A stretch of 64,000 bases of DNA from a virus. Position 1 is the first letter of the stretch. Each line of letters starts with the position of its first letter. The notes below the pieces were generated by a model. The model made no database searches. It was not told where the DNA came from and saw only the letters and a list, made by a program, of their open reading frames with translations. The DNA lies in IMG/VR virus record IMGVR_UViG_3300028821_000038, positions 32,001-96,000 of that record; one strand, 5' to 3'. Positions 33,864-59,872 of the stretch are shown here, one piece after another. A program made the translations under genes and the position numbers.

Positions 33864-33878
33864 CCATATATATATACC
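33864..33878 (-). promoter_or_regulatory. conserved 15-mer GGTATATATATATGG (putative phage-RNAP promoter), copy 1
   Basis: exact copy heading the leftward DNA-metabolism operon. Confidence 0.7.
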
Positions 33879-33938
33879 ATTTTAAGCTGTAGAATTGCTG
33901 TTTTATGCGATAATTCAATAAAAACGGACGGAGTACAC

Positions 33939-36611
33939 ATGGATACTTATCGAACCTTATGGAGGTTTTTTAGAGAGAATAGGGAGTATTTCTCCAAGAT
34001 GGGAGATGCATACAAGGTACGAATAGACTTTGAAAATGAGCTATTTTTCATAAAAAACAGGTGGTTTGCCGACCCGTTTTACCTACTTTTGAAGCTTTTT
34101 CGTGATAAATTTGCCGAATTGGGGCCTAGCGCAGACGGGGAATTTAATAGAATCAACAAAATCCTTCATTCTGCGGGCATCAAGATTCCTATTTCCAAGA
34201 AAGACTATGATTTTCTTATAGATTATGATGTGAAAAACCAAACTATTCTGGATATATTAGAAGGACAGCTGGGTGCTAAAAATGGAGCATTTGTGGTTCC
34301 GTCAAAAGAGTATGCGAACAATATGTTCAGGAACGCATCTGTTGATTTAGAGAGAATGACTGGTGGTCTTTTTGTATATGAAGGTCGAGAGGCGAGAGCA
34401 TATGTGGACATATATGACAGGCTGACTGGATTTGAGGTGATTCTGGACAATTCTACTATTTTTGTGCCTGTGAAAATATCAGAGATATCAAGATCTGCCT
34501 TCAATGAGCACAATCTCAGGAACATAAAACCCAACTCGGTTGTGAAAATCTTAGAGATAACTGATACATCCCCCATAGAGGATGGAGTTGTATTTGCGCC
34601 ATCTGACTCATTCGGGTGCCTCCCCAATGTTGCTAAATATTTCTCTGCCTTCGAAATATACAGTAACGACGATTTCTTTATAATGAATATTGTCAAAGAG
34701 CTTTATGGTTATAACAGCGATTTTTCAATTCTAGTGAATGATGAGAGTGCTATAAAATATATCTCAAATATGGCGGTTGGTTTGTATACCAAAGAAAAAT
34801 CATCGGCTATTCCACAGCTTGTGGATATAGCCAGAATGGTTGCCAAAATGAATCACATAAACAGGGCAATGTTTATCGACTATATCACTACAGATATACC
34901 CGAAGATGTGATGGAGCTGCTAAAACCACACATAAATGGTGGAAATGACAATGTATATGAGCGACTATATGAGTTTGTGGTAAATGGAAATATAGAGTTT
35001 TGCGCCAGATTAGTGAGTATCACAGGCGATTCCAGTCAGATTAGGTTCTACAATAAGAGAATGATGTATTTCAAGGATTTTACACTCGACAGAGGAAGTG
35101 TATCTAACGAACTAATCCCAGAACTGGGAGGTATTAGGAAAATTGCCGAGCAGTGTGATATTTCCCAAAGTGACATTCCAAGCGGCTTCTCTTCTGTTGA
35201 GTCTTTTATAATTCACACTACACTCAGGATTGTGCAGGGAGAGTTTGGCAGATTGCCAGTATTTGACAGGTTTTATGGAGACGGGATACATAAAATAGGA
35301 GAGAAGATAATCTTTAACTCCAAGCATGATGTATATGGTCTTGGCGGCAGAAGGTCTTATGGCGGAGGGCTGTTTAAAAATGCTGATATAGACACTTCTA
35401 TCCCAAAAAACAAGCCGACAAAGGCGCATGCTGAGGGCTATATCTTAAAATTGAAAGAGTATATATCCGGTTTTATACCGTCTTCTGGGGACAGAGATTT
35501 GTTGTTTTCTATATTATTAGCATCATCTATTGCAATGCCTGTATTCAAAAAAGCCAACAAGCCCACCCTGTGTGTATATGGTGGTGGCAGATATGCGGAG
35601 GAGGGGTTCAAAAAGCGCGTATTTGTGGATGCTTTTAGGGCCAGCAAGGTTGTTTCAACAGATAATGAGCTTGTTATTAGGAATTTGGTTGACGGAGGAA
35701 CAGTGCCTATTGTTGTGCCGCTTAGGAGGGAAATAGAATCTTCTGTTATATCTCTAGCAAAAGAGAGGTATGGAACAGAAACAATAGTAAGAGCACGAGG
35801 TTTCCTGATGTTTTCAAAATACTCCAACACATCCCCATTTGTTATGATTTCCGATGAGCCTGTCATAATCGAGGAATCTATTGTGTTTAATTTCCCATTT
35901 AAGACAACTGTTGAGGCAGGGGTGTATCTTAAAAATGTCGATGACCTATCAGGAGGTATCATTGGAGGCATCATTAGAAATACTTCTCATATTTCAAAGC
36001 TTGAACAGAACTTCATTAAAAAAGCCCTGAGCAAACTGGAAAACAAAAAGCAAACCCACAAAAGTCCATATGTCGATTTTTTTGAGAAGGTTTTGGCAGG
36101 AATGTGTATAGCTGAGGCATTTGGGGTAATGTCTGGATGGGAGTTTCATGATGCCATGCATGATGTTTACTTCAATGATAAATATATCAGGCTGAATATC
36201 GATATAAAGAAGATAATTCTGGATTTGTATGACAATGGTGTAAAAGTTGAGGATAAATTATATGAGGAGTCTATGCGGGGAGATATCGATGGGCATATTA
36301 CATTGGTGGATAAGTTCATAAATATTATAAATCTCAAAAAAAATGTTCCGCCGGAAAACTTCTTGGTGATATTTAGCAGGAGGGAGATGTATAAGGCCAT
36401 TAAAGATGATCTCAACCTTTCCTTCCTTGAGTTTAACAAGATGTTAGATAATAGCAAGTCATCGATAAATTGGGATAATGCAATCAAAAACTATAGAAAA
36501 ATAGATGACCCATCCATCACCCCATTGGCGGAATTTAAGAAGAAGTGGGATAAAACAAAAGAGGATTTTGGCGCAATAAGGCTTCCTATGGGAAAATATG
36601 GAAATATTTAA
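33939..36611 (+). CDS. large protein, possibly a degenerate primase-helicase
   Basis: GGAG RBS; VDIYDRLTGF and KPTLCVYGGGRYAEEG loosely recall DnaG-like and P-loop segments but lack catalytic residues. Confidence 0.4.
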   Translation: MDTYRTLWRFFRENREYFSKMGDAYKVRIDFENELFFIKNRWFADPFYLLLKLFRDKFAELGPSADGEFNRINKILHSAGIKIPISKKDYDFLIDYDVKNQTILDILEGQLGAKNGAFVVPSKEYANNMFRNASVDLERMTGGLFVYEGREARAYVDIYDRLTGFEVILDNSTIFVPVKISEISRSAFNEHNLRNIKPNSVVKILEITDTSPIEDGVVFAPSDSFGCLPNVAKYFSAFEIYSNDDFFIMNIVKELYGYNSDFSILVNDESAIKYISNMAVGLYTKEKSSAIPQLVDIARMVAKMNHINRAMFIDYITTDIPEDVMELLKPHINGGNDNVYERLYEFVVNGNIEFCARLVSITGDSSQIRFYNKRMMYFKDFTLDRGSVSNELIPELGGIRKIAEQCDISQSDIPSGFSSVESFIIHTTLRIVQGEFGRLPVFDRFYGDGIHKIGEKIIFNSKHDVYGLGGRRSYGGGLFKNADIDTSIPKNKPTKAHAEGYILKLKEYISGFIPSSGDRDLLFSILLASSIAMPVFKKANKPTLCVYGGGRYAEEGFKKRVFVDAFRASKVVSTDNELVIRNLVDGGTVPIVVPLRREIESSVISLAKERYGTETIVRARGFLMFSKYSNTSPFVMISDEPVIIEESIVFNFPFKTTVEAGVYLKNVDDLSGGIIGGIIRNTSHISKLEQNFIKKALSKLENKKQTHKSPYVDFFEKVLAGMCIAEAFGVMSGWEFHDAMHDVYFNDKYIRLNIDIKKIILDLYDNGVKVEDKLYEESMRGDIDGHITLVDKFINIINLKKNVPPENFLVIFSRREMYKAIKDDLNLSFLEFNKMLDNSKSSINWDNAIKNYRKIDDPSITPLAEFKKKWDKTKEDFGAIRLPMGKYGNI

Positions 36612-36659
36612 GGTTTCGTCTGGTAAGATGTCAGTTCAACCAAACAGAAAGGAGGTATC

Positions 36660-36968
36660 ATGCTAGATACCAACAAGTCTGATTTCAGCGATATGTCTCT
36701 TGGTGAGCTTATAGAGGAAATTCTAGACAGCTTCCATGAGGTTGAGCGGGAATGGGACATAACCAAACACAAGGTAAATAAATCTGCATGGCTTAGGATT
36801 AGAAAACATATGGCGGCCATATGTAAAGCTAATAAGGCCATGAAGAAGCAAATGCTGTTCTTGGAAAAGATACTTAAACAAAACAAAAAAAGAGAGGAAA
36901 AGGATGAAGCTTTCATTTTTGATGCCAGAATTGGCGATAGTGGCGGCAGTAGCGTCAAAAGTAAATAA
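36660..36968 (+). CDS. histone H1-like (Hc1-type) basic helical protein
   Basis: KVNKSAWLRIRKHMAAICK resembles the NKAAGxRARK motif; GGAGG RBS. Confidence 0.5.
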   Translation: MLDTNKSDFSDMSLGELIEEILDSFHEVEREWDITKHKVNKSAWLRIRKHMAAICKANKAMKKQMLFLEKILKQNKKREEKDEAFIFDARIGDSGGSSVKSK

Positions 36969-37620
36969 CAGAGAGGAGTTTTCAAAGAAGATTGACGAAA
37001 CAATCAACCATCAAAACTTCCAGGAAATGGCTGACAGGATTGCATCAGACACTCTTTTTGGTAAATATAGGCTGGTTGTTTCTGATAAAACAGAGGAGGC
37101 TCACGAGTTTGCTACAACTCTGCTGATTTTGTCGGCTACCAGCTCTATACCGCTCATGGTTCCGGAGGTAGTGATTACAAGAGACGAAGTGGTTTTCACA
37201 GCTTCTATTGGTCATGCTTATGAGATAATCACCGAGGTTCCTGAAGACAAATATAGCTTTGATGGAAAAGGGCAGCTTGAGAGGGAAAAACTGAAAAGCA
37301 TGATGGATTCGTTTAGCTTTGATGAACCTCAAATTACTGCGATAGATGTTTCCAGCAACAATCCCGACATATTCCTTCTCACGGGAAGTTTTCTCCCTGA
37401 TACCTGGAGAATTTTTGAGAGACTGGGTATTTGCAGCACAGCGTCAAGGTTTGGATTTAGCGACCACGACACTTTGGTTCCCGGATTCTGTTATATATTT
37501 GATGGCGGCCTCAATATGTTGGCATCCATTGAAGATGAGGAGAGTGTCCTGACTCAAAAAATCATAGAAGATCTTGGCCGACTACCAAAGCGTCAGGAAT
37601 CTGATGATGCGTCGAGTTGA
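36904..37620 (+). CDS. hypothetical protein
   Basis: 238 aa ORF. Confidence 0.65.
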   Translation: MKLSFLMPELAIVAAVASKVNNREEFSKKIDETINHQNFQEMADRIASDTLFGKYRLVVSDKTEEAHEFATTLLILSATSSIPLMVPEVVITRDEVVFTASIGHAYEIITEVPEDKYSFDGKGQLEREKLKSMMDSFSFDEPQITAIDVSSNNPDIFLLTGSFLPDTWRIFERLGICSTASRFGFSDHDTLVPGFCYIFDGGLNMLASIEDEESVLTQKIIEDLGRLPKRQESDDASS

Positions 37621-38035
37621 TACTTTTTTTGTTGTAAAGACAGACTTAGGCTACGATGGTCAAATTAGACAGGGAAAGGAGGTGGGCCTCCTTTACCCTG
37701 CCCCTCATGTGCTTGTAACCAAAATAGATTTCTCAGACCCAGAAAGTATATATATTCCCAAAAGAATGAGGCCTATCGCGGCAAGATGCGGGCTGATTAG
37801 AGATTCCAGGATTAACAATAATGGGGTTGGTATAGCTATTCATGCACCAAATGGTGATATCGCAGAGCATGCTTTACTTGTGGCGGCTGCAGAGATAAAA
37901 AACATCATAGAGGATCTTGGCATAGTAAATTATGCTGTCCAGACAGATGAAAATAATGAAGACAGGCGTATTGACACCATGCAGCTCGAAGCAAAAATAG
38001 CCTCAATAAAAAGTATATTTATAAAGCTTAAATAG
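37604..38035 (+). CDS. hypothetical protein
   Basis: AGGA RBS before ATG 37604. Confidence 0.6.
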   Translation: MMRRVDTFFVVKTDLGYDGQIRQGKEVGLLYPAPHVLVTKIDFSDPESIYIPKRMRPIAARCGLIRDSRINNNGVGIAIHAPNGDIAEHALLVAAAEIKNIIEDLGIVNYAVQTDENNEDRRIDTMQLEAKIASIKSIFIKLK

Positions 38036-38070
38036 TTTCGCTAAAATATACAAAAATTACAAAAGGAATT

Positions 38071-38295
38071 ATGATGCTTGTACTGATAAAGGATTCTAGT
38101 GGGGTAGAGAGAGCAATAGACCTCGGAAAACAAGGCTGGACTGTCAATCAGCAAGGGGACGGTAGGTTTATGCGGATAGTGTTCGATGATGGTTTTTCCG
38201 CTTCCATACCAATGTCGCAGTATGATAAAATAAAAAAAGAATTAGTGGAAAAAGGGGAGCTTCTCGATCTTACTCAAGTGGCGACTCCTAGATAA
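38071..38295 (+). CDS. hypothetical protein
   Basis: AAGGA RBS; preceded by a GCTAAAAT -10-like element. Confidence 0.65.
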   Translation: MMLVLIKDSSGVERAIDLGKQGWTVNQQGDGRFMRIVFDDGFSASIPMSQYDKIKKELVEKGELLDLTQVATPR

Positions 38296-38348
38296 AGGAT
38301 GGCACCAGTAGATGGTGCCGCCCCTAAAATTACCAACCAGGAAGTAAT

Positions 38349-41300
38349 ATGTCTTTCAAGAAATTAAGTAGGCCATATAAGGAAACAGATGAACATGTAA
38401 AGGCAAAGTTGCTAGAAACTCTTTCAAATATGTTTCCAATACAAGGAAATTTTTTCACACTAAAAGCAACAAATTTTGCCATAAAAAAATCCGACCCATC
38501 TATGACTGATATAAAAAATGCCCTCATCAAGGGTTCCTCTTTGATGTCATCAGTTGTCGCGGATGTATCTTTGATTAATAACAATACAAAGAAGGTGATC
38601 GATAAAAAGAGAATGACAATCATGAGGGTGCCTGATTTCACAAAGAAGGGCTCTTTTATTGTTGACGGTAACTCATATACGGTTCCGTATCAGCAAAGGC
38701 TTAAGCCTGGCGTCTATACTATGATAAAGAGAAATGGCCAAACAGAATCCATGTTTAACCTTGCAAAAGGACGAAATTTCTCTATAAAAATAGACGAAAG
38801 TGGTATTTTTAGGATAAAAATAGGAACATCTCATGTGTATTTATACTCTATATTGCATGACTTGGGCATTCCAGATAGCGAAATTGTAAACTACATTGGG
38901 AAAAACCTCCTGGAGGTGAACAAAAAACACTATCACTCTTCGGATTCTGCAAAGTTTATAAAGCAATTCACATATAATGCTTCTTCTCATGATATTGGAA
39001 GCATCCAGGACGCTCTCAAGCATACCTCTGTAGATAAAAGTGTGGTAAAAAATACTCTTGGGGTTGAGTCACCTCATGTGGACCCTATTATGATTCTTCG
39101 TGCAGCCCAAAAGCTAAAAAATGTTAAATTTGGGAAAGAAGAGGAGGATGACAGGGAGAATCTTGTCTATAAAAAGATAATGACCCCGGAAGACATCATA
39201 TCCGAGTCTTTCGACAAGCTTGCCAAAGATGCAGTAAATAAACTCAAATTCAAACTAAGCAACCCATCCACCGAGAACCTATCTGATGTTTTTAGGGGAG
39301 GAAGTGGCTTGCTCACTAAGCCAATAAAGACATTTTTGACTTCATCTAAAATATCCAGGCTTAGTGAGGAATATAATCCACTAATGATGCATTCAGTAAA
39401 GCATCTGCTTACCCCTATGGGAGAAGGAGGGGTTGGTGATACACGGGCATTGAACCTGGATACAAAAGCTGTTCACCAAAGTCACTTAGGCTTTATAGAC
39501 CCGATAGCATCTCCAGAAGGAGCTAGTGTCGGAATTACTCTTTCTGTGACAGATAATGCCTATGTTGATGAGCATGGAAACCCAGCTATTGGAGTCATCA
39601 ATGCAAAAACTGGCAAGCGTGAAATTAAGAAAGTGTCTGATTTGTGGGATAAAAAACTAGCCTACCCAATTTCACCAGAAAAGGCCAAAAAGGGCGGTAT
39701 TGTAGTAAGATACAAAGACAAGGATATTATTGCAAAAAGCAAGAAAGATGTTGATTATATAATACCAAAAGATACAGATATTCACTCCCCATCTCTCAAT
39801 ATGGTTCCACTTGTAAACTCTTCAGACGCAAACAGAACCAATATGGCGCAAAAACATTTACAGCAGGCTCTATCGCTAAAAGAAAGAGAGGCACCAATTG
39901 TATCTGTAAAGAGCGGTAGCGACGATATGGCTGCAAAGCTTGTAAAAGATATGGAACTTCTTCCTCGCGCCCCTATAGATGGCGTTGTCACCAAGATAGC
40001 CAACGAGTATATATATATCAAAAATGGAAAAAATCTTGTAAAAGTTGATTATGTTACAAACATGCCGCTTGCGAGAAAAACATATTTGACACACTATCTG
40101 AAAGTTAAAGTGGGGGATAGAGTAAGAAAGGGCCAGATTTTAGCAGAATCAAACTACTCTAAAGACGGAAAGCTTGCGCTTGGAAAAAACCTAAGAACAG
40201 CATGGCTCTCGATGCCAGGAAACAGAAACGATGGAATAATAATCTCTGAAACAGCAGCAAAGGAACTATCATCCCTTCATATGTACAAAGAGGTTGTGGA
40301 TATCCCTCATGATTCTGTATTGGACAGAGAGAGATTTAGGAAGCTGTTTCCAGATATCGCTGCAAAATGGGGTATAGAGAACTATGATGAGCATGGTGTT
40401 ATAAAGAAGGGGACTATTTTAAAGTTCAAGCAACCCCTTGTTCTGAAAATGGCTAGGACTGATGCAAAAGAGATAAAATCAAAACTCGGAAAGGTAGTTC
40501 ACAAGCCTTATAAGGCAGTATTAAATATATGGAAGCACGAAAAAGATGGCGAAGTTATAGATGTTGAGAATAATGGAGCAGAAATACGCATTTCTGTTAA
40601 AACAGAGAGTGAAATGAAAATAGGTGATAAGCTCTCTGGAAGGCAAGGTAATAAGGGTATAGTAACTAAAATACTACCAGATGACCAGATGCCTGTTAAT
40701 ACCAAAGGTGAGCCTGTTCATGTACTGATGACTTCAGCGGGAGTTATCAGTCGTACAAATAGTGGTTCCCTTATAGAGGCCGGTCTTGGTAAAGTTGGAG
40801 ACAAGGCAGGCAAGACATACACTATTGGTCACTATGAAAAAGATGACAACTTGAAGTTTTTGGAAAGCGAAGCCAAAAAGCACAAAGTGGACCTATATGA
40901 AACACTTATAAATCCTGAGACAGGAAAACCATTTCCGCAGAAGATATTTGTAGGGAAGCCCTACATACTAAAGCTATTTAAGGATTCAGAGTCTGGAATG
41001 AGTGCTGTTGGTGTGGGTGCTACCGACATTAATGAACAACCCCTCAAAGGCGGAAATACTTCAGCTGCATCCATATCTGGAATGGAGGTGAATGGTTTAC
41101 TTGCTCATGGTGCCAAAGACTTTTTAAGGGAAGCCAAGCATATCAAAGGGCAAAAAAACGATGACTTTTTCCATGCCTTTAGAACAGGAAGCCCATTGCC
41201 GCCGCCAAAGGAGCATTTTGCAACAGAAAAATTCAAAGCATATCTGAGGCAGATCAATATCAATCCTATTGCAGACAAGCATACAAAAGAGTTCTCTTTG

Positions 41301-42671
41301 ATGCCAATGACAGACAAAGAAGTGGTTAAGATGTCATCTGGGGCAATCAAAAATACCGAAACAGTTGCCGCAAAAAATATGAAAGTTGTAAAAGGCGGAC
41401 TCTTTGATGAGAGCATCTTTGGTGGCCCCCAGGGTACAAGATATGGCCACATAAATCTTCCTATGAAGATATTGAATCCTTTATATAAAGAGCAGGTAGC
41501 TGGTTTACTTGGCGTTTCCGCAGGAAAGCTAATAGATGAAGTCAATCATAATGGGTTTGACGATATCGAGAAACGGATATCAAGTATAGATGTAGACAAA
41601 AAACTAAAGCAATTGAAGTATGAGTCTAAAAATACATCTAATCAGCAGCTCATAAATAAAAACATAAAACAAATCAAGTTTCTTGAGAAGATCAAAAATT
41701 CTGGTCACAAGCTGAAAGATGCAGTATTTATCTCAAAAATCCCAGTGATTCCTCCCGTATATCGCCCTATTGCCAAGGGGATGGATGGCTCAGTTACCGT
41801 TAATGATTTAAATATGTTCTACCAAGATATCGGAATGCTCTCTGATGCTATTAAGCACTCTGGGAAAATAAGCGGAGGTACAAAAAAAGAACTATCGAAA
41901 GACCTATATCACACTGTTGGCGCCTTATATGGAGTAGAAGAGACTCCCAATAAGAAGTTGAAAAATAAACAAATTAAAGGGGTTTTGGATATTCTAGGAG
42001 GAGAGACTCCAAAAAAATCATATATCCATAAAACCATGCTCAGGTCTAAGCAGTTTATGAGTGGAAGGGGAGTTATAAAGCCTGCTCGAAACGATATCGC
42101 CCTTGATGAGATAGAAATTCCTGAAAAAATGGGACTCGAGATGTATAGCCCTCATATTCAAAGGAATTTGGCCAGAAGAGGATATTCCCCAATAGAGGCA
42201 AAAGAGTTGATTGAAAATAGAGATCCAAGAGCTATCGAAACTCTTCATGAGATAGGAAAGCATATTCCTGTTGTGTACAACCGTGCTCCTACGCTATGGA
42301 AACACAATATACTAGGGGGGTATCCAAAGTTCATCAAAGGTAGCACAATCGGCATCAATCCTCTAGTCGAAAGAGCCATGAATGCCGATTACGATGGTGA
42401 TACTGTTTCAGTACATGTCCCCTTGACTGATAAGGCGATCCATGATGTAAAAACTAAAATAATGCCAAGTAAAGCATTGTTTACCGAGGAGAAGGGGTAT
42501 CACGATCCAGATGTTTTGTACCTGCCTAACCAAGATGCAACCCTTGGAATATATAAGGCGTCTTTAAAATCCAGAAAACCCGTTAAGAGGGTAAAAAATA
42601 TAGATGAATTGAAACACAAGATTGCATCAGGAGAAATAAACTATAACGATAAGGTGATAGTGACAAGCTAA
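38349..42671 (+). CDS. rpoB: phage multi-subunit RNA polymerase: beta subunit fused to beta' N-terminal (catalytic) half
   Basis: beta motifs GSFIVDG, IDPIASPEGASVG, DANRTNMAQKHLQQA, ALGKN..NDGIIISE, GDKLSGRQGNKG, QPLKGG, MEVNGLLAHGA; then beta' motifs GGLFDESIFG, GHINL, IPVIPPVYRP, SGRGVI, NRAPTL, NADYDGD (42381-42401). Confidence 0.95.
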   Translation: MSFKKLSRPYKETDEHVKAKLLETLSNMFPIQGNFFTLKATNFAIKKSDPSMTDIKNALIKGSSLMSSVVADVSLINNNTKKVIDKKRMTIMRVPDFTKKGSFIVDGNSYTVPYQQRLKPGVYTMIKRNGQTESMFNLAKGRNFSIKIDESGIFRIKIGTSHVYLYSILHDLGIPDSEIVNYIGKNLLEVNKKHYHSSDSAKFIKQFTYNASSHDIGSIQDALKHTSVDKSVVKNTLGVESPHVDPIMILRAAQKLKNVKFGKEEEDDRENLVYKKIMTPEDIISESFDKLAKDAVNKLKFKLSNPSTENLSDVFRGGSGLLTKPIKTFLTSSKISRLSEEYNPLMMHSVKHLLTPMGEGGVGDTRALNLDTKAVHQSHLGFIDPIASPEGASVGITLSVTDNAYVDEHGNPAIGVINAKTGKREIKKVSDLWDKKLAYPISPEKAKKGGIVVRYKDKDIIAKSKKDVDYIIPKDTDIHSPSLNMVPLVNSSDANRTNMAQKHLQQALSLKEREAPIVSVKSGSDDMAAKLVKDMELLPRAPIDGVVTKIANEYIYIKNGKNLVKVDYVTNMPLARKTYLTHYLKVKVGDRVRKGQILAESNYSKDGKLALGKNLRTAWLSMPGNRNDGIIISETAAKELSSLHMYKEVVDIPHDSVLDRERFRKLFPDIAAKWGIENYDEHGVIKKGTILKFKQPLVLKMARTDAKEIKSKLGKVVHKPYKAVLNIWKHEKDGEVIDVENNGAEIRISVKTESEMKIGDKLSGRQGNKGIVTKILPDDQMPVNTKGEPVHVLMTSAGVISRTNSGSLIEAGLGKVGDKAGKTYTIGHYEKDDNLKFLESEAKKHKVDLYETLINPETGKPFPQKIFVGKPYILKLFKDSESGMSAVGVGATDINEQPLKGGNTSAASISGMEVNGLLAHGAKDFLREAKHIKGQKNDDFFHAFRTGSPLPPPKEHFATEKFKAYLRQININPIADKHTKEFSLMPMTDKEVVKMSSGAIKNTETVAAKNMKVVKGGLFDESIFGGPQGTRYGHINLPMKILNPLYKEQVAGLLGVSAGKLIDEVNHNGFDDIEKRISSIDVDKKLKQLKYESKNTSNQQLINKNIKQIKFLEKIKNSGHKLKDAVFISKIPVIPPVYRPIAKGMDGSVTVNDLNMFYQDIGMLSDAIKHSGKISGGTKKELSKDLYHTVGALYGVEETPNKKLKNKQIKGVLDILGGETPKKSYIHKTMLRSKQFMSGRGVIKPARNDIALDEIEIPEKMGLEMYSPHIQRNLARRGYSPIEAKELIENRDPRAIETLHEIGKHIPVVYNRAPTLWKHNILGGYPKFIKGSTIGINPLVERAMNADYDGDTVSVHVPLTDKAIHDVKTKIMPSKALFTEEKGYHDPDVLYLPNQDATLGIYKASLKSRKPVKRVKNIDELKHKIASGEINYNDKVIVTS

Positions 42672-44481: not shown

Positions 44482-44490
44482 TGATATAAT
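44482..44490 (+). promoter_or_regulatory. extended -10 promoter TGnTATAAT
   Basis: TGATATAAT preceded by a T-tract, upstream of the HU-like gene. Confidence 0.6.
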
Positions 44491-47036: not shown

Positions 47037-47260
47037 GGTGAGCGTTATTTGTTTTGACCTCTTCCGCAAATAGGGAGCGTTGTGATTATCCGTATCATTA
47101 CTCCAGCAATATAACTGGCCGCTAGAAACGGGATAGTGTTCTGAGCGTCACGACAGGAGTCATTTCTTCTTCCCCTCTTCGCAGGGTTGTGTAGATCTTT
47201 GCTCATATGAGTCCTTTTTGGGAAATTTGGGGTTTTCAAGCCCCCTTCCTTTCGCTCACC
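47037..47260 (-). ncRNA. candidate structured RNA with paired ends, containing a 53-aa ORF
   Basis: starts at the GG of the promoter motif; 5' GGTGAGCG pairs with 3' CGCTCACC; GC-rich relative to its surroundings. Confidence 0.45.
47045..47206 (-). CDS. small peptide, 53 aa
   Basis: AAGGA RBS; MSKDLHNPAKRGRRNDSCRDAQNTIPFLAASYIAGVMIRIITTLPICGRGQNK*. Confidence 0.4.
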   Translation of the reverse strand: MSKDLHNPAKRGRRNDSCRDAQNTIPFLAASYIAGVMIRIITTLPICGRGQNK

Positions 47261-47273
47261 ATATATATATACC
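47259..47273 (-). promoter_or_regulatory. conserved 15-mer GGTATATATATATGG, copy 2
   Basis: exact copy. Confidence 0.7.
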
Positions 47274-47299
47274 AATTTATTATATTAGTAGTGCACATC

Positions 47300-47308
47300 T
47301 GCTATAAT
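47300..47308 (+). promoter_or_regulatory. extended -10 promoter TGnTATAAT
   Basis: TGCTATAAT about 30 nt upstream of 47338. Confidence 0.6.
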
Positions 47309-51626: not shown

Positions 51627-53081
51627 ATGATAAACAATTTCGTCGATTTTATAACGGATACGATATCGCCAGATATAATCAATGATTATCTGGAAAATGG
51701 AGGAGGTAGCCCAAGTGATTTTGTAGGCAGTGATGAAAGCACTATGGATTATACAAAAGCGGGGTGGATGCTTAAATGCTATATGGATATGCTAAATAAA
51801 GGGCAGGTTACAAGTGATGTTACCGATGTCACCAGAATGATTATGAATTTTGACTGTCCTGATGGCAAAAAGAATTATGAGTGTATATCACCTGCAGGAT
51901 ATAATTTGCTTCAGATGATGGCGTATGAAGCAAGACAATATCCCGACTTTGTAATAGATGATGTTTCTGATATTTTAGATATAGAGCATCTTTTGGCAAA
52001 CTATCATCAAACCGCACGGAGCGTTGGCCAGCAAACTTTCGTTCATATGATTGCGGAGTTTATGGAAGATAATTTGATATCATCCATAGTTGAGGGTGAT
52101 ATATCTGTTGGCAAGCAGGTAGATGATGGGGTTCAGAATAGACTTATCGCCCCATATTATTTAGCTTTAAAGAATGCAGGGGATGCTATTTCCGCAGGCA
52201 AAGTTCCAGAAATAGAAAGAAGCACACTGGACGCCCTCAGGGGACATATTACATCGGGCGTTAGCTATAGAGAATTTATTGGTGAGGACGGCTACTATAC
52301 TGGCGCAGATCAGTATCCCACAAATGAATTATCGAAATTTATTGCGGCATCCTCCCATGAAGCTATCAAATCTGTAGTGAAAAAGATTCCCGAATACCTA
52401 CTTCCAATTGTGGATACGTCCAGCGAACAGCAAGAAGTTAGGCGCATATCAGATGCGCTGAAAGATGCGGCTGTAGAATACGGAGGATTGTCGATATCGA
52501 AATCAAGATTTGATATAGGGCGATATATTGCGGGCACCCAGGAGAATAAATACAACAATGGGTATACCCCCATGATGTACTATGTAGGAAAATACAGAGG
52601 CGAATGTGACATAAATGTGCTAAACAGGCTTGCTAATGTTTACAATCCATTAGCCCTATCGGTAGACAGTAGCTCATTCTCGGAAGGATTCACTCCCCTG
52701 TCTGTTTTGGCCGACAATATGACTATAGTGGGCGATGATTATTCATCATGGAGTAGGCCAGAATTGGCTTCTTTTATCAAGAGGTTTGTGTCCACGGTAT
52801 CGGACGGTTCCAACCCGTATAAGACATATGTTGCGGCTGGGGTAGTGTTTTTGGTGACAAATGGAAGCAGTAATAACTCATTTGGGGTGGTAAACAATAT
52901 CATGCTAAAGATAAACGAAGCTCACAAGTCTTGGTATGAAGAGCAGAGTGACGACACTATATCCCCGAGCGATTTTGAAGATACATACAATACCCTTGTA
53001 GGCGCCATTCTCCCGAGCGAGTTTGATTATTCATTTTATGCGTCATGGATGAATGAATTTGAAAAAAACATACAGAAGTAG
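51627..53081 (+). CDS. hypothetical protein with degenerate ankyrin-like motifs
   Basis: GYNLLQMMA, QQTFVHMIA, NGYTPMMYY, EGFTPLSVLA. Confidence 0.45.
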   Translation: MINNFVDFITDTISPDIINDYLENGGGSPSDFVGSDESTMDYTKAGWMLKCYMDMLNKGQVTSDVTDVTRMIMNFDCPDGKKNYECISPAGYNLLQMMAYEARQYPDFVIDDVSDILDIEHLLANYHQTARSVGQQTFVHMIAEFMEDNLISSIVEGDISVGKQVDDGVQNRLIAPYYLALKNAGDAISAGKVPEIERSTLDALRGHITSGVSYREFIGEDGYYTGADQYPTNELSKFIAASSHEAIKSVVKKIPEYLLPIVDTSSEQQEVRRISDALKDAAVEYGGLSISKSRFDIGRYIAGTQENKYNNGYTPMMYYVGKYRGECDINVLNRLANVYNPLALSVDSSSFSEGFTPLSVLADNMTIVGDDYSSWSRPELASFIKRFVSTVSDGSNPYKTYVAAGVVFLVTNGSSNNSFGVVNNIMLKINEAHKSWYEEQSDDTISPSDFEDTYNTLVGAILPSEFDYSFYASWMNEFEKNIQK

Positions 53082-53096
53082 GGTATATATATATGG
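53082..53096 (+). promoter_or_regulatory. conserved 15-mer GGTATATATATATGG, copy 3
   Basis: exact copy heading the rightward small-gene cluster. Confidence 0.7.
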
Positions 53097-53366: not shown

Positions 53367-53609
53367 ATGGATACGACACTGGTGGCTTTGGTAGTCTTGT
53401 TTTTTGCTTATAAAGTGACACAAACATATAACGAAAAACAAGAGCATATCGAGGCGATAAAAGCTGGGTTGGAGGAGTGTGTTATTCCTGAACGGCCCAA
53501 CCAGGAAATATGGGTCAAGGATTGCGAGAAGTACATAAAGATATATACTTCTAAGAAACAGAAGGAAGAACAAGATGGTCTTCGGGGCGATAAAAATGGA
53601 GTGGAATAA
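53367..53609 (+). CDS. small membrane-anchored protein
   Basis: N-terminal TLVALVVLFFAY. Confidence 0.6.
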   Translation: MDTTLVALVVLFFAYKVTQTYNEKQEHIEAIKAGLEECVIPERPNQEIWVKDCEKYIKIYTSKKQKEEQDGLRGDKNGVE

Positions 53610-54280: not shown

Positions 54281-54794
54281 ATACTTACTTGCAACGGGAT
54301 GGGGCGCACTCGGAAGCGAACTGCAGAATGCAAATCTTGTGGATGATATGTGGTATAAGAGACCAAATAAATATATCAAAAATGCAAGCGAGATAGATAG
54401 GGGGGTTTTAGAACTGTTTCTACTGCTTGAAGATAGAGTTCTAAAAGATGGGTATCAAGAGGCCGAAATGCGCTCCAAGAAAATAAGAGAAAAAAGCAAT
54501 ATACTTGATGAAGAGCAGGCTGGTCAAGTAAACACTATATTGCTGGGATTGCATCTGATACACTTTTGGGCTGAAAAAACAAAAGGTCCACTTGCAAAAC
54601 TGGCAGAAAGTAAGTCATTGAGACTGATTGATATGGTTAAACCTCTAGTGATAGAGAAGTCAGGCCTTGAAACTTCCAAAAATAGCTATCGGTGTGCCGA
54701 TGACCTGCTCAGGATTGTGGAAGGAAGGGCTGTGCTGCCAAAAGAAGTCAGAGATAAAAATGCAGCCAGATACCTTAAGAAAACTACCGTATAA
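54270..54794 (+). CDS. hypothetical protein
   Basis: AAGGAGG RBS before ATG 54270. Confidence 0.65.
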   Translation: MNYEYLLATGWGALGSELQNANLVDDMWYKRPNKYIKNASEIDRGVLELFLLLEDRVLKDGYQEAEMRSKKIREKSNILDEEQAGQVNTILLGLHLIHFWAEKTKGPLAKLAESKSLRLIDMVKPLVIEKSGLETSKNSYRCADDLLRIVEGRAVLPKEVRDKNAARYLKKTTV

Positions 54795-54817
54795 TCAAAA
54801 TAAAAAAAGGAACCAAT

Positions 54818-55282
54818 ATGGCAAACAAAGTTATATTGATGGGCAATATGACAAATGATGTAGAGCTTACATACACATCATCTGGAATGGCGATAGGAAG
54901 CTTCTCTATTGCTATAAACAGAAGACAGAAGGATTCAGCAACTGGAGACTATGTGGAAAAGACCACTTTTGTCCCCATAAAAGCTTTTGGGAAGACAGCT
55001 GAGATAATCAGCCAATACCTAGGGAAGGGCTCCAAGATATATATCGAGGGGCGACTAGAAATGGATCACTGGACAACTCCAGATGGGATGAATAGGAGCA
55101 AGATGTATGTAATACTCGATAATTTCGAGTTTGCATCCCCTAAGAAGAGCGGCGATAGCAACAGCTACTCATCCTATAAGCCTGCGGTAGAGAAGCCCAT
55201 GCATAAGAATGATATGTCTGGGGTTAAAATAATAGAAGAAAAAATCCCTGAGGTAAATCTGGATGAAGAAATACCATTCTAG
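54818..55282 (+). CDS. ssb: single-stranded DNA-binding protein
   Basis: NKVILMGNMTNDVEL..KGSKIYIEGRL; acidic tail EEIPF. Confidence 0.95.
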   Translation: MANKVILMGNMTNDVELTYTSSGMAIGSFSIAINRRQKDSATGDYVEKTTFVPIKAFGKTAEIISQYLGKGSKIYIEGRLEMDHWTTPDGMNRSKMYVILDNFEFASPKKSGDSNSYSSYKPAVEKPMHKNDMSGVKIIEEKIPEVNLDEEIPF

Positions 55283-55625
55283 GAGAATATATGATTAGAG
55301 CACTAGTGGGCATCAGTGATGCCCACAAGGAAAAAGAGCTCAAAACAGAGCAATGGGATATGCGCGGTATGCACCACAGCAAGGGTGGCATAAACCTAAT
55401 TCCCGAATAGGAGGCGCACCAAAGATAGTAAATGTGATAGATATATAACATTCTTTTCTGCACACAATAGCACATCTCCTGTACCATTCTTATCCCAATT
55501 AAAATGGAGGGTCAAACATGATATAACAATAAAGAGATGGATAGAAAAATATACGGATATATATAAGTATGATATAGAGAATATGCCAGATAAGGTTACA
55601 TACAAACCATACAAGAAAGGAGAAT

Positions 55626-55877
55626 ATGCAAATGCTTTATCCAATCATAAAAACCAAAAAAGAAATCTCCCCAAACATGATAGGCCAAGAGCTTGTCCTG
55701 GAGGAGAAAGTTGTGTTGCTCGGAGTTATAGATGATTCTATCAAGCTTCCCAATTCATGTGCTGGATGTGCGTTCCAGCCGAAAGATGGCGAAGCGTATC
55801 CTATGTACTGTGTAGATTGCGCTAGATTCTACACAGACAAATGGGTAGGAGTCTGGGAAGATAAGGAGGAAGAATGA
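55626..55877 (+). CDS. small Cys-rich protein
   Basis: CAGC..CVDCAR; AAGGAG RBS. Confidence 0.6.
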   Translation: MQMLYPIIKTKKEISPNMIGQELVLEEKVVLLGVIDDSIKLPNSCAGCAFQPKDGEAYPMYCVDCARFYTDKWVGVWEDKEEE

Positions 55878-57997
55878 GAATAGATGGCAAAAGTAAAGTA
55901 TCAACAAACATATCAGGGGCAAAAGATTTTGATATAAACCCAACCCCTGAGATGTTTATGCTGCTCTCATCCGGCCTGTATCAAGACAAGATAAAAGCCG
56001 TGATTAGAGAGCTTTCTGCAAATGCTTTTGACGCGATGGTTAGCAATGGAACTATCAAAGAGAAGGCATTCGATGTTATTGGCCCTACCGAAAAAGATCC
56101 CGTATTTAGAATCAGGGACTATGGGCCAGGCTTGTCGGAGGATGAAATATATGCCCTGTATACGAAATATGGGGCTAGTAGCAAAAATGACACCAATAGC
56201 ATGATAGGTGCATTTGGTGTTGGCTCGAAATCACCTTTTGCATACACTATGCAGTTTACCGTCACAAGTTTTAACGGAGGAATAAAGAGTGTCTACTTGG
56301 CATATGTAGACGACGGCATTCCCCGTGTAAAAAAAATATCATCTGAACCCAGCAACGAGCCATCTGGGTTGATGGTAGAGGTTGGTGTATTTAGCAAAGA
56401 TATATCTACCTTCAATTCCAAAATATCAGATGTGATATCGTGGATGGACTTCCCCGGTCCAATACCAGAAGGTATTTGGAAAGATAGGAGGAAGGTGATA
56501 TCCATCCTAAAAGAAAAGGGATACTACACATTTCTATATAAACTCGATGGTCTGTATGTCTACTGTGGAGGAATAGTATACTCAGTTGACAAAGATGGCC
56601 TTGACGAGGATATCCTAGAGATGATAGACACCAATAGTGTGGTTTTGTATGCCCCAATTGGTAGTGTATCCATTGCTGCATCCAGAGAGTCAGTAGCGAT
56701 GGATAGCAGAACTTCACACTATATCCATAACACGCTGCGAAAAATAAAGAACGGTATCGTGTCTCACATAAAAGATGTGATATCTGATTCCGACAGCGTA
56801 GTCACGGCAGCCAAAAAAATATACGGAATGGTGGTGAAATATTCATCTGTAGACTTAAGCAAAAGAGATGCTATATTTCTCCATGTTTTAAAGACAGAAG
56901 TGCTCAATATGCTAAAAAATAGATTTAAATATGTTGAGCAACATTATAGACATCATAACAACGTCAATGCCTTGGTGTTTTTGTCACTTAGCGCAAGTGA
57001 CCCAAAAATATTATTTGCTGATTGGATGACTGTCTATCGTGAGTATAATGGTATGCCAAGTAACGCTATGTTGGTTATTGCCAACTCCAGGCATAGAATC
57101 AGACAAATAAGCACATTTTATGCCAATGAGCATGACTACGATTGTGTTATCGTGGTAGACCATGAAAAATATGAGGAGGAAAAAGAAAAAATATGTACGC
57201 TATTTGGCCACGACAATATATTTAATCAAAAATTCCTTCTGGAGTATTATAGAAACAATTCTCCAGATCTGAAAAACACTGCATCATCAGAGTTCGAGAC
57301 ACCAACAAGCAACCAGAAGTTTTATAGGTTTAAGGGGGAAAGTATGTCGTCGTTCTCGATGACTAAACTTCCAAAGGATAAAAAAATAATAGCCTTCAAA
57401 ACCAATCATACTGTAAACCATCAAGTATGGAGGATTATTGTGAGGTGGTTTAAAAGGTTTTTTGATGATAATGTAGATACTGTAGTACTTCCTAAGAGCA
57501 AATATCACATAGTTGACGACAATGAAAATGTGATATGGGCACACGATTACTTTAAAGAGAAGATTGGAACAAAAAAGTCGATTACTTTAGAGATAACACC
57601 CAGTGAGTATTTGATACACAATATATACTTCTTCTTATCACTCATTAGAGGTTTGACATATCGGGAGTACATTGAAAACAAAAGAATATCTATTATTCTT
57701 AATGCTGCCTCTAAAATGTATACAGAATCAAAATATCTGAGGAGTGACACAGAAAAAATCGAGGAGGTGTATAGTGCGATTTTTAATACTAAAATAAACA
57801 TAAAGCTCAAGCTGGACAGGAAGTATGTTTTTGTAAAAAACATGGTGGCCGAAATAAACTTTAAAGAGGTGATAACACACCAAAATGCTCTGGAGATTCT
57901 GGAGTACATATACAGCGGCACTTATCCTGTTTACAGTGCTGAAAAATTTGAAAAAATACTGAAAGGAAGAGAGGATGTTTCCTTTTATATTAAATAG
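55874..57997 (+). CDS. rIIA: rIIA-like protein (GHKL ATPase N-terminus)
   Basis: LYQDKIKAVIRELSANAFDA, IRDYGPGLS, YGASSK, IGAFGVGSKSPFAY, SRESV. Confidence 0.85.
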   Translation: MRIDGKSKVSTNISGAKDFDINPTPEMFMLLSSGLYQDKIKAVIRELSANAFDAMVSNGTIKEKAFDVIGPTEKDPVFRIRDYGPGLSEDEIYALYTKYGASSKNDTNSMIGAFGVGSKSPFAYTMQFTVTSFNGGIKSVYLAYVDDGIPRVKKISSEPSNEPSGLMVEVGVFSKDISTFNSKISDVISWMDFPGPIPEGIWKDRRKVISILKEKGYYTFLYKLDGLYVYCGGIVYSVDKDGLDEDILEMIDTNSVVLYAPIGSVSIAASRESVAMDSRTSHYIHNTLRKIKNGIVSHIKDVISDSDSVVTAAKKIYGMVVKYSSVDLSKRDAIFLHVLKTEVLNMLKNRFKYVEQHYRHHNNVNALVFLSLSASDPKILFADWMTVYREYNGMPSNAMLVIANSRHRIRQISTFYANEHDYDCVIVVDHEKYEEEKEKICTLFGHDNIFNQKFLLEYYRNNSPDLKNTASSEFETPTSNQKFYRFKGESMSSFSMTKLPKDKKIIAFKTNHTVNHQVWRIIVRWFKRFFDDNVDTVVLPKSKYHIVDDNENVIWAHDYFKEKIGTKKSITLEITPSEYLIHNIYFFLSLIRGLTYREYIENKRISIILNAASKMYTESKYLRSDTEKIEEVYSAIFNTKINIKLKLDRKYVFVKNMVAEINFKEVITHQNALEILEYIYSGTYPVYSAEKFEKILKGREDVSFYIK

Positions 57998-59063
57998 TGA
58001 TTCGTTAACAATTGTGGAGGGCGGAAGAGTCCACACTATCATGTCGGATAATCCAAAATTCGACGAGGTGATCTCTTCGCTCACCACTGGAAATGAAGAA
58101 GAGGTTCTGGAGGCTATAAACGACGCATATAAGATAGACAAGTTTCTTGGCAAAAAATGTGTCGTCAAGGATGACTCTTTGTATTATGATGGGTTGGAGC
58201 TGCATGGCGCCATCATAGAAAGAGCAAAAAGCTTCATAAAGAAGGATATCCCTGTAGATCCGCTTCTCAGATTTATAGAGAAGCTCATGATGAATGAGGA
58301 TTTGGAGTCAGTAAAGGATCTGTATAGGTTCTTGGAGCACAACAAGCTTCCTATCACAAGTTCCGGGAACTTTCTTGCCTATAAAAAGGTAAAGAATAAT
58401 TACCGAGACTTTCATTCAGGGATGAATGATAACAGTGTGGGGAGTATCGTGAAGATGAACCGCCATAATGTTACGAAAGATAGAAATATCACTTGTTCAA
58501 CCGGACTTCACTTCGCGTCATATCAGTATGTAAAAAACTTTATGCGTGACGGCCGCATGGTTGTACTGGAGATAAATCCTGCGGATGTGGTAAGCATACC
58601 CGTCGATTATAACAACGCAAAAGGGCGATGTTGCAAATATAAAGTCGTAGGAGAGCTCCAAAAATTAGATAGAGATGTCCTTGGTGGGAAAGATTATATA
58701 TCGGAAATCAAAAGGGACGGCTCGGTAGTGTTCGACTTTGATTTTGAAGCGAAAAATCCCATAGAGGAGGCTATCAATATATCGCAAAGTGAGGTCTTGG
58801 CGTATATGCTAAAAGACCCGACTAAGCCAGAATTTACATTTGATGGCGAACTTGGCATGATTGTCCCTAATATCAAATATTGTTATATAGATAAAGGGAA
58901 GTATCGGGTCAATAAGAAGTTTAAAGGCAAAAACTATGAACTTGGTCGGTTTGACAATTTTAAGGCGGCTCGTTCGGTTGTATATGAGTTGTGCCGCGCT
59001 ATAGTAGATGGCAAAAAAGAAGAGTTTATTGAAGAATATATGAAGAGCAAGGATAAAAAATGA
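57975..59063 (+). CDS. rIIB: rIIB-like protein with C-terminal AP2-like segment
   Basis: LYRFLEHNKLPITSSGNFLAYKKV, CSTGLHF, INPADVVSIPVDYNNAKGRCCKYKVVGE; follows rIIA. Confidence 0.85.
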   Translation: MFPFILNSDSLTIVEGGRVHTIMSDNPKFDEVISSLTTGNEEEVLEAINDAYKIDKFLGKKCVVKDDSLYYDGLELHGAIIERAKSFIKKDIPVDPLLRFIEKLMMNEDLESVKDLYRFLEHNKLPITSSGNFLAYKKVKNNYRDFHSGMNDNSVGSIVKMNRHNVTKDRNITCSTGLHFASYQYVKNFMRDGRMVVLEINPADVVSIPVDYNNAKGRCCKYKVVGELQKLDRDVLGGKDYISEIKRDGSVVFDFDFEAKNPIEEAINISQSEVLAYMLKDPTKPEFTFDGELGMIVPNIKYCYIDKGKYRVNKKFKGKNYELGRFDNFKAARSVVYELCRAIVDGKKEEFIEEYMKSKDKK

Positions 59064-59362
59064 CTCCTAATGAAGTGTTTAGGAAGGTATACAATCACAA
59101 AACAAACTTCTTAACCCCTTGGGTTATATATAGGGGTAAGGAGGGGGTTTACTATTATGAGCTCAGCACGTCTAATGATGGATACAACCCAGACAACAAC
59201 TTGTATGGGGTAACCATCATAGATGCAAGGAATATGGAGCCAAGAAAAGATTTATCTACTGCATTCTTCAGTAGGAAAGATGCTGAGGAATACATCGAAA
59301 AGATAAAAGAAGAAGGACGAAAATTATACAAGGAGGAGAAGGATGAGCGAAATCAGACATGA
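59060..59362 (+). CDS. hypothetical protein
   Basis: AAGGA RBS; coupled. Confidence 0.65.
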   Translation: MTPNEVFRKVYNHKTNFLTPWVIYRGKEGVYYYELSTSNDGYNPDNNLYGVTIIDARNMEPRKDLSTAFFSRKDAEEYIEKIKEEGRKLYKEEKDERNQT

Positions 59363-59675
59363 GCTAAAGCCCTTTTTGGGCAAGGAAATAACAATTTCTG
59401 GAACAGTTCTTCAGTATATACCGCATAGCGAAAAAAGTAGCCTCCCTAAGATTCTTGTTGGGAGTGCATATGTATGTGGTACAGAGGTGAGGCTCCATCA
59501 TCTCTGGTTCACCCCTAAAAAGACAAAACCAAGAAGGGGTGATGTCATTGAGATAACTGGCGTGGTGGGCCAGTACCCATCGATAGACTGCAATGGAAAC
59601 CGCATATGTAAATACGGGTTCTCGAAAATAAAAAACAGCAAGGTGGTGCTAAGAAAGGAGGAGATTCATACTTGA
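59343..59675 (+). CDS. OB-fold-like hypothetical protein
   Basis: beta-rich; HHLWF..RGDVIEITGVVGQY. Confidence 0.55.
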   Translation: MSEIRHELKPFLGKEITISGTVLQYIPHSEKSSLPKILVGSAYVCGTEVRLHHLWFTPKKTKPRRGDVIEITGVVGQYPSIDCNGNRICKYGFSKIKNSKVVLRKEEIHT

Positions 59676-59847
59676 CAAGGTATATGTGGTAGTTGCCTAC
59701 TACCTTGGCAGCAGATAGAGAAGATTATATATTATTGGTGTGTTCTCCAGTTTTAAAAAGGCAGAAAGGGAGGCTAAAAAAGAAGAGAAGCACCAAGAAG
59801 AGAGGTATGCCTGTGAAATACTAACGAGGTTAAAGATGAAGCATTAA
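59668..59847 (+). pseudogene. small ORF with an in-frame TAG and ATA in place of a start
   Basis: (I)LDKVYVVVAYYLGSR*RRLYIIGVFSSFKKAEREAKKEE..YACEI..; TAG at 59716-59718; strong GGAGGAG RBS upstream. Confidence 0.45.
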
Positions 59848-59857
59848 AGTAAAAAAA

Positions 59858-59872
59858 GGTATATATATATGG
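59858..59872 (+). promoter_or_regulatory. conserved 15-mer GGTATATATATATGG, copy 4
   Basis: exact copy heading the peptide/JAB/ThiF/E2 operon. Confidence 0.7.

Follow-up and report, generated by a model that had tools for sequence, protein, structure and literature searches.

The exact 15-mer that recurs in the window (the whole stretch of 64,000 nucleotides of viral DNA analysed here) is almost certainly a promoter motif, and its reader is quite probably a holoenzyme formed by the phage's own RNA polymerase (RNAP) and a phage sigma factor. Judged from sequence comparison, the motif is probably the early promoter of such a holoenzyme packaged in the virion. It has the form of an extended -10 box, TGnTATAAT, but ends in TA and so lacks the T at -7. 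The earlier note had read the 15-mer as a promoter of the phage RNAP that starts at the final GG and is recognized through an extrudable (TA)n tract. The promoter, its probable reader, and a start at the GG (with the first G found in 22 of 24 sites) are retained here, whereas the extrusion mechanism is not.

Copies of the motif and their setting

Four exact copies were found in the window, at 33864-33878 (-), 47259-47273 (-), 53082-53096 (+), and 59858-59872 (+), against 0.002-0.004 expected under Markov models of order 2-4, and the 64-kb scan gave no further copy with one or two mismatches. All four are intergenic, and each is oriented toward a gene 40-72 nt downstream. The copy at 33864 falls within the mechanical ORF 33819-36611, and it is intergenic because the true start of that gene is 33939 (890 aa; 889-890 aa in relatives). 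The four copies are complete for the window but not for the 162-kb genome (a record estimated to be 82% complete), which holds two extra copies of the 14-nt core with A in place of the following G, and about four near-variants. A search of viral contigs with the 14-mer was uninformative, with single scattered matches in unrelated contigs.

At orthologous sites in relatives, the N4 and the flanks vary, and the comparison indicates that the conserved unit is (T)GGTATATA-N4-TG and not the (TA)n tract. The exact pattern GGTATATA-N4-TG has seven matches in the genome, all of them intergenic and strand-concordant, in a genome that is 7% intergenic. The early-type sites lie 23-93 nt ahead of Shine-Dalgarno-led, mostly non-structural genes, always on the same strand.

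The site at 33864 heads the NYN, exonuclease VIII, RecT, replication initiator, DnaB, and ribonucleotide reductase genes, and below the site at 47259 lies a 53-aa ORF (47045-47206, minus strand). The site at 53081 heads small ORFs, SSB (54818-55282), and the probable rIIA/rIIB genes (55874-59063), and the site at 59857 heads a 52-aa ORF, three unknown ORFs, and a probable RNase H gene (63323-63784). A Pfam search did not support a JAB/E1/E2 reading of 60164-63326. Elsewhere in the genome, the near-variant at 103632 precedes two ORFs of about 640 aa, one of them with a fibrinogen domain, so the genes under it are possibly structural. The Rfam search of the window gave no match, and ARAGORN reported one tRNA-Leu outside it. 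Table 1 lists the features.

Table 1. Promoters, predicted RNA structures, and RNAP genes in the window (window coordinates)
Feature	Position	Strand	Remarks
RNAP beta' C-terminal subunit	653..2404	+	homolog of Arash gp216, E 7e-67
Late-type promoter TGGTATAAT	16696..16704	+	only the last two bases differ from the early motif
Late-type promoter TGATATAAT	17990..17998	+	heads unit with portal gene
5'-terminal hairpin of predicted transcript, 6-7 bp	33849..33865	-	pairing probability 0.99
Early-type promoter TGGTATATA-tata-TGG	33864..33879	-	predicted +1 at 33865
Divergent late-type promoter TGCGATAAT	33906..33914	+	serves 890-aa gene (start 33939) and RNAP unit
RNAP large chain, beta fused to N-terminal half of beta'	38349..42671	+	NADYDGD active-site motif
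Late-type promoter TGATATAAT	44482..44490	+	same sequence as at 17990..17998
Predicted end-paired RNA	47037..47260	-	47260-47253 pairs with 47044-47037, just past the stop of ORF 47045-47206
Early-type promoter	47259..47274	-	predicted +1 at 47260; heads unit of ~225 nt with 53-aa ORF
Divergent canonical late-type promoter TGCTATAAT	47300..47308	+	serves 47338 and 1335-aa gene
Early-type promoter	53081..53096	+	adjoins stop codon of 51627-53081; predicted +1 at 53095
Early-type promoter	59857..59872	+	predicted +1 at 59871
5'-terminal 8-bp stem of predicted transcript	59871..59917	+	z -3.1; pairing probability 1.00

Phage RNAP and sigma factor

The RNAP large chain shares 30% identity with gp206 of Salmonella phage Arash, and only one gene of the NADxDGD type was found in the genome. 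A sigma70-fold gene lies outside the window, at genome positions 21135-21785 among structural genes. The Pfam Sigma70_r2 search of the genome did not retrieve a sigma, and the gene surfaced only through Arash gp10 (E 1e-6). With Foldseek, every top match of the protein was a sigma factor, and the family profile matched sigmas in the PDB with an E of 3e-16. The gene occurs alongside the phage RNAP in all eight viral records that are at least 90% complete. In the alignment, the phage sigma is without region 1.2, the NLR motif, and the tryptophan pair. No homolog of the second Arash sigma, gp196, and no second phage sigma was found in this genome.

The complex of the sigma with the beta' clamp was predicted with a score of 0.75 (best control 0.00), a mark that 58 of 80 solved complexes attained, as against 2 of 110 mismatched pairs. 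The runs share at least 52% of contacts, and the pLDDT of the partner is at least 76, although the prediction may reflect memory of solved sigma-RNAP complexes. Arash gp206, gp216, and gp10 were found in virion preparations, with the caution of the authors that abundant proteins may co-purify with virions (PMC10585845). These proteomic data, together with the late-type promoters that precede the RNAP and sigma units, lead us to infer that the RNAP is packaged.

The sigma could alternatively redirect the host RNAP core while the phage RNAP serves other genes, for example late ones. Phage sigmas of this kind are known in T4 (gp55) and SPO1, and both the sigma70 fold and the bacterial extended -10 geometry of the motif agree with this reading. 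We nevertheless consider it unlikely: the sigma accompanies the phage RNAP in every near-complete relative, its gene lies among structural genes, the Arash virions held it together with the RNAP, and the model, with the caution given above, places it on the clamp helices of the phage beta'.

Two promoter classes

The early sites carry TG at -15/-14 and TA at -12/-11, with T0 in 21 of 24 sites followed by G, G, T, and A. The T at -7 is missing; A is found there in all sites chosen by synteny, and G in Arash and Vibrio phage D69. A second class, TGnTATAAT, precedes the structural, RNAP, and sigma genes in this phage. Neither this genome nor its clade shows a conserved -35 element, and a generic -35/-10 scan gave 63 matches against 60 by chance. 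It had been noted that the motif has no TAnnnT hexamer; this holds in the conserved register, and no other TAnnnT register is conserved. To take the motif as not sigma70-like is misleading, however, as it is an extended -10 box with two changed bases in a phage that encodes a sigma70-fold protein.

A further candidate reader is the host sigma70 holoenzyme in unmodified form, if it tolerates A at -7, perhaps with the help of a phage activator. Early phage genes are often transcribed by the host RNAP, and TG-n-TATA fits seven of the nine positions of the Campylobacterota extended -10. A Campylobacterota host is only suggested, by the best plasmid matches of DnaB (Arcobacter, about 36%), the vent origin, and the TGnTATAAT promoters. 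With the host so inferred, 95.6% of the start sites of C. jejuni follow gnTAnaAT (PMC3847290), and a dedicated sigma70 pocket captures the T at -7 (bioRxiv 2024.03.13.584744). Moreover, no alternative TAnnnT register is kept, and the perfect TAAT ending is used elsewhere in the genomes that carry the early motif; the consistent absence of T at -7, with A in its place in the clade and G in Arash and D69, therefore looks selected against host use. Unaided or activated, reading by the host enzyme is thus quite improbable.

Conservation in relatives

Orthologous sites were picked by synteny, not by pattern, in relatives at 55-77% RNAP identity. TGGTATATA is kept in five of five relatives at site 1, four of five at site 2, and the single one at site 3, while the flanks diverge. 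The early motif is found at the ortholog of the 47259 site in L133-L136, and the ortholog of the 53081 site in L137 reads TGGTATATA-gtta-TGC. In most relatives, the counterparts of TGCGATAAT in the orthologous regions are nearer to the consensus.

The exact pattern GGTATATA-N4-TG was not found in relatives at or below 52% RNAP identity, and those at 39-52% carry TGTTATATA. Arash and D69 have TG[G/T]TATAAG ahead of non-structural genes, and the family-wide counterpart is TG[G/T]TATA-(TA/AG). Matches to TGGTATAAG fall on a single strand in Arash (0 plus, 18 minus) and G028 (0 plus, 17 minus), as do those to TGTTATAAG in D69 (0 plus, 13 minus), with 0-2 matches for the reversed-pattern controls in each case. 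In 63 of the 67 matches with both strands known, TGGTATAAG lies on the strand opposite the sigma gene. The pattern is scarce in G014 (five copies) and G008 (one copy), and no early motif was seen in G006 although the sigma gene is present; de novo motif search of these three genomes recovered no motif. A metagenome scan for the RNAP gave only distant, probably cellular RNAPs.

Start site, TA tract, and 5' stems

The likely start of transcription, as read from the sites themselves, is G14, which opens the final GG. In this genome and its clade, G14 and a pyrimidine-purine step at 13/14 are each present in 22 of 24 sites, and 24 of 26 sites of Arash and D69 have the corresponding step at 14/15. 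G14 sits 6 nt past the hexamer; in Arash the distance is one nucleotide longer. The GG proposed as +1 is thereby narrowed to its first G, since the second is not conserved.

The proposed extrusion of the tract would give a hairpin or cruciform read by the phage RNAP, as with the hairpin promoters of the N4 virion RNAP. A self-complementary 11-nt TA run in six of ten own sites speaks for it, and an unbroken run of at least 10 nt is found in six of ten. Such a run persists in only one of 14 clade sites (the other 13 are broken by ctat, ttat, gtta, or tatt) and in none of the 26 Arash and D69 sites, while the TG-n-TATA half is kept in both groups. A conserved inverted repeat of the N4 type upstream of +1 is thus not seen, and the extrusion reading is very improbable.

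All four 5' stems of the earlier note can form, but a protective role for them is weakly supported. GGUGAGCG would pair with a segment some 210 nt away (47037-47044), the GGAA/UUCC stem has only 4 bp, and the end-paired RNA has a z of -2.65, with 2 of 200 shuffles equally good. Pairing of the first three nucleotides is 0.57 against 0.41 in shuffles and strong in 10 of 24 sites; it is absent at the three 'GA' sites and shows no enrichment in Arash. The 5' hairpins are a frequent but optional trait, carried by some transcripts and separate from the promoter itself.

Identical copies spread over the genome would also suit a repressor operator, a replication iteron, or a packaging signal. Any of these is highly unlikely: the copies are single and non-palindromic, lie 23-93 nt before a same-strand start codon, and show an initiator-like step, and no canonical promoter that an operator could block is conserved on that strand. 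A host sigma54 promoter (GG-N10-GC) is barely credible: Campylobacterota have sigma54, and TGG stands at the 5' end with TG 11 nt later, but sigma54 spacing is strict, and here positions 13-14 are TG instead of GC, the G falls at position 14 or 15 and not 13, and no conserved C follows.

Proposed mechanism and significance

In the packaged-holoenzyme reading, the RNAP and sigma would be made late, packaged, and injected, as the Arash proteomics suggests. The sigma would dock on the beta' clamp helices and read TG-n-TATA in much the same way as an extended -10 is read by sigma70. Without region 1.2, the NLR motif, and the tryptophan pair, it would not need the T at -7, and TA would be accepted or preferred; what the alignments show is a correlation of the lost T with the absence of the NLR motif and the tryptophan pair. 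Host sigma70 would use the early site poorly. The A/T-rich stretch past the box would act as an easily melted discriminator, with the RNA beginning at G14. TAnAAT is retained at late genes, whose reader is probably the host sigma70 RNAP, because no second phage sigma was found.

More tentatively, at somewhat less than even chances, a wide phage family including the cultured phages Arash and D69 may run an orthogonal sigma70-type system, with a packaged minimal RNAP, a sigma without the T-7 pocket and tryptophan pair, early TGnTATA-(TA/AG), and late host-type TAnAAT. In that case, two adjacent bases would set the viral promoter code apart from that of the host, and a sigma would melt DNA without residues thought invariant for primary sigmas. 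The 15-mer itself is only one lineage's instance of a signal common to a large phage family. The motif, the predicted +1, the candidate sigma, and Arash, as a model cultured on a laboratory Salmonella strain, make the family transcription strategy directly testable, and the natural TA and AG variants provide a series for studying a -10 specificity change in a sigma70-fold protein. Orthogonal gene expression could benefit from a three-protein RNAP that does not respond to host promoters.

Comparison with known systems

Our literature searches found no paper describing the early promoter or the two-class scheme, and promoters of Arash-type phage RNAPs have no description in the papers searched. 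Coliphage N4 uses a packaged enzyme for early genes (PMC4496689) and the host sigma70 RNAP for late genes, and both steps are proposed here. The N4 virion RNAP, in contrast, is a T7-like single-subunit enzyme that reads hairpin promoters on single-stranded DNA. The mReC phages have separate beta and beta' homologs, and their paper mentions neither promoter nor sigma (PMC7481178).

Early promoters of phage virion RNAPs can be predicted from sequence and are AT-rich motifs of about 10 nt with their centre near -10 (PMC7598289). As in phiKZ and AR9, a short AT-rich motif near -10 lies upstream of early operons, and the multisubunit phage RNAP is presumed packaged. Unlike these phages, one RNAP is found here (in a record estimated to be 82% complete) instead of a virion and non-virion pair, the chains are a beta-beta'N fusion and beta'C instead of split beta and beta', and the motif derives from TGnTATAAT. 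A recognizable sigma70-family factor also distinguishes this phage from the phiKZ-like group 1 phages, for which no sigma factor is reported (PMC7824862).

The Campylobacterota extended -10 (gnTAnaAT without -35, PMC3847290) resembles the early motif in its TG-n-TATA core, A/T-rich upstream DNA, lack of a conserved -35, and start 4-8 nt past the box. Positions -8/-7 are TA and not AT in the early motif, and the late class is the true match.

A further close system is that of Arash (gp206, gp216, and gp10; PMC10585845, a paper without promoter analysis) and D69. They differ in ending the motif with AG instead of TA, in a predicted +1 one base further, in having no 5' stems, and in a second RpoD-like sigma (gp196), which this phage lacks. 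They share with it the RNAP split, the orthologous sigma, and the motif in the form TG[G/T]TATAAG.

Conserved unit and predicted start site

The four exact copies of the 15-mer described in an earlier note lie at the places and on the strands given there (Table), against 0.002-0.004 copies expected, and the window holds no neighbours with one or two mismatches. Their intergenic placing holds when the 890-aa gene start at 33939, the same as in relatives, and a 53-aa ORF (47045-47206) are counted. The virus record containing the window, which spans its bases 32001-96000, has 162,314 bp, and its best-matching sequencing run is a hydrothermal vent metagenome. The 14-nt core has six copies genome-wide.

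We retrieved the relatives' regions around the RNAP gene and compared their orthologous intergenic regions with sites 1-3. At site 1, TGGTATATA was kept in 5/5 relatives, with place and strand unchanged; the following bases were tatg, tatt, ctat, tata or tatg, and position 14 (G14, the first G of the final GG) was G in all but one relative's locus (L003). TGGTATATA was also kept in four of five relatives at site 2 and in the single relative covered at site 3. Because these sites keep TGGTATATA and, L003 apart, the final G while the four bases before the final TG (N4) vary, the conserved unit is (T)GGTATATA-N4-TG. The full-genome scan, for which intergenic, strand-concordant hits had been expected, resulted in seven exact matches, all of them so placed, 23-93 nt upstream of a start codon, in a genome that is 7% intergenic.

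Genome bases 1-98 are a 98% repeat of 159936-160035, promoter variant included, with a third copy (75%) at 161764-161925; the repeat may be a repeated cassette or an assembly end.

The TA tract, previously read as an extrudable element, is not conserved: a TA run of at least 10 nt was unbroken in 6/10 own sites versus 1/14 clade sites, and therefore tract symmetry or extrusion is not the conserved feature. The proposed start at GG was narrowed to its first G, since the pyrimidine-purine step at 13/14 and G14 were each conserved in 22/24 own and clade sites; the second G is not conserved. In the Salmonella phage Arash and the Vibrio phage D69, the step falls at 14/15 (24/26 sites).

Motif sites and transcription genes (window coordinates unless marked genome)
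Feature	Position	Strand	Predicted start or basis
Site 1	33864	-	33865
Site 2	47259	-	47260
Site 3	53082	+	53095
Site 4	59858	+	59871
14-nt core copies ending GA	genome 159430, 161859	-	
Near-variants of early motif	genome 103632, 153304, 159958		genome pattern search
RNAP beta fused to beta'N	38349-42671		Pfam RNAP domains; NADYDGD; 30% to Arash gp206
RNAP beta'C	653-2404		homology
Sigma	genome 21135-21785		homologous to Arash sigma gp10
Three ORFs behind site 4	60164-63326	+	no Pfam match

Transcript 5' stems

All four stems attributed to the transcripts fold. The first three transcript bases had a pairing probability of 0.57 versus 0.41 in shuffles (24 sites; p ~0.04, the sites not being independent), reaching at least 0.7 in 10/24. 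No stems were found at the three GA-ending sites, and no pairing excess over shuffles in Arash. Only the opening bases, around G14-G16, show the excess, which is compatible with a start at G14. The stems are a frequent extra and do not belong to the promoter signal; their protective role is hypothetical.

GAAA-tetraloop short hairpins begin at G14 in two relatives' loci (L137 5443 (-) and 24093 (+); L136 18874 (-)), and the two L137 hairpins show compensatory differences, CAC/GTG versus ACC/GGT. At 47037-47260 (-), base pairing joins the 5' end of the predicted transcript to the 8 nt directly after the 53-aa ORF stop (z -2.65); relatives carry small ORFs of 33-66 aa there, at least one hydrophobic. 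Type I toxin-antitoxin mRNAs show end-to-end pairing, of which this predicted transcript is reminiscent.

Two promoter classes

Genes under the early motif encode exonuclease VIII, RecT, an initiator, DnaB and ribonucleotide reductase (recombination, replication and nucleotide functions), besides small unknown genes; SSB and rIIA/rIIB families were among the genes scanned under it. Canonical TGnTATAAT or TGATACAAT heads units with portal, capsid, SNF2 helicase, RNAP and sigma genes, often divergently from an early-type site (e.g., 33906 and 47300). Aligned, the classes read TG-n-TATA-TA (early) versus TG-n-TATA-AT (late). The late class fits gnTAnaAT, the sigma70 consensus of Campylobacterota (PMC3847290). 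The best plasmid matches of DnaB are from Arcobacter, a weak pointer to a Campylobacterota host.

At genome 103632-107582 (+), two ~640-aa ORFs, of which the second carries a fibrinogen C domain, follow a one-mismatch early-type site and, 50 nt downstream of it, a late-like TGGTATTAT; this is possibly a dual-promoter unit. A CGAAAA-like hexamer at the -35 position, exactly 20 nt upstream of TG (17-nt spacer), occurs at about six early-type sites in relatives (G002, G004, L134 19865), with no conservation at the early-type sites of the own genome. Locus L134 also has an ORF-poor 3.5 kb (19800-23300 (-)) with four early-type promoters, one of which, at 23257 (-), leads into tRNA-like sequence; several Arash sites are likewise upstream of tRNA genes.

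The exact early pattern fades below ~55% RNAP identity. Motif searches found TGTTATATA in relatives at 39-52% identity and TGGTATAAG in Arash. Strand counts were 0+/18- for TGGTATAAG in Arash, 0+/17- in the relative G028, and 0+/13- for TGTTATAAG in D69, with 0-2 matches for reversed-pattern controls; for 63/67 TGGTATAAG matches, the sigma gene is on the other strand. In loci surrounding 79 related RNAP genes, TGnTATA was intergenic in 57% of cases when followed by AG and 43% when followed by AT, background intergenic DNA being 6%. In Arash and D69, TAAAAT, which retains the -7 T, heads several structural units. Across the family, TG-n-TATA is thus retained, with another base in place of the -7 T in the early class. 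In G006 (165 kb, 38% RNAP identity), which has TGnTATAAT late promoters and an ortholog of the sigma, motif searches did not find the early motif.

(C/T)TAAAAT often precedes late-type structural units of Arash and D69 (L001, L002), and their second, RpoD-like sigma could be its reader. The sole plus-strand GGTATAAG site seen in Arash (L139 11588 (+)), 3 nt before the gp9 start and directly upstream of sigma gene gp10, is a possible leaderless or autoregulatory start.

Phage RNAP and sigma

The sigma gene, present in 8/8 near-complete relatives, has structural genes as neighbours, and its relatives carry Sigma70_r3/r4 domains. The predicted structure (pLDDT 75.5) had only sigma factors as its top matches in structure searches, and the family profile matched solved sigmas (E 3e-16). 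Sigma residues 8-140 with RNAP residues 985-1260 gave a predicted-complex score of 0.75 versus 0.00 for the best control, with at least 52% contact agreement between runs and partner pLDDT of at least 76. The score mark is reached by 58/80 solved complexes and 2/110 mismatched pairs; the passing score may reflect resemblance to sigma-RNAP complexes of known structure.

The T-7 pocket of sigma70 is lined by NLR and region 1.2. Sigma70 holds A-11 and T-7 in pockets, and a tryptophan pair holds the bubble edge (bioRxiv 2024.03.13.584744). In the alignment, the phage sigma lacks both NLR and the tryptophan pair at the positions of NLR and TYAxWW in cellular sigmas and Arash gp196, a correlation that fits a promoter without T-7. 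Late genes probably use host sigma70, because a second sigma was not found in the own genome (record estimated 82% complete). In Arash, proteomics of virion preparations picked up RNAP chains gp206 and gp216 and sigma gp10; the authors caution that co-purification may play a part (PMC10585845).

Comparison with known systems

We judge the promoter to be real and conserved; its most likely role is that of an early promoter read by a packaged holoenzyme of phage RNAP and sigma. The earlier assignment to the phage RNAP is retained as probable, with sigma as its partner, and recognition of the TA tract is dropped. A host extended -10 promoter shares the build of the motif but fails the -7 T test. 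An N4-type hairpin promoter was rejected, as TA symmetry is broken in 13/14 clade sites. No description of promoters in Arash-type phages turned up in our literature search. The motif works like the early promoters of the phiKZ/AR9 virion RNAP (PMC7598289); however, the phage here is set apart by having a single RNAP whose chains are split differently, and by encoding a true sigma70 homolog, which is reported absent from phiKZ-like group 1 (PMC7824862).
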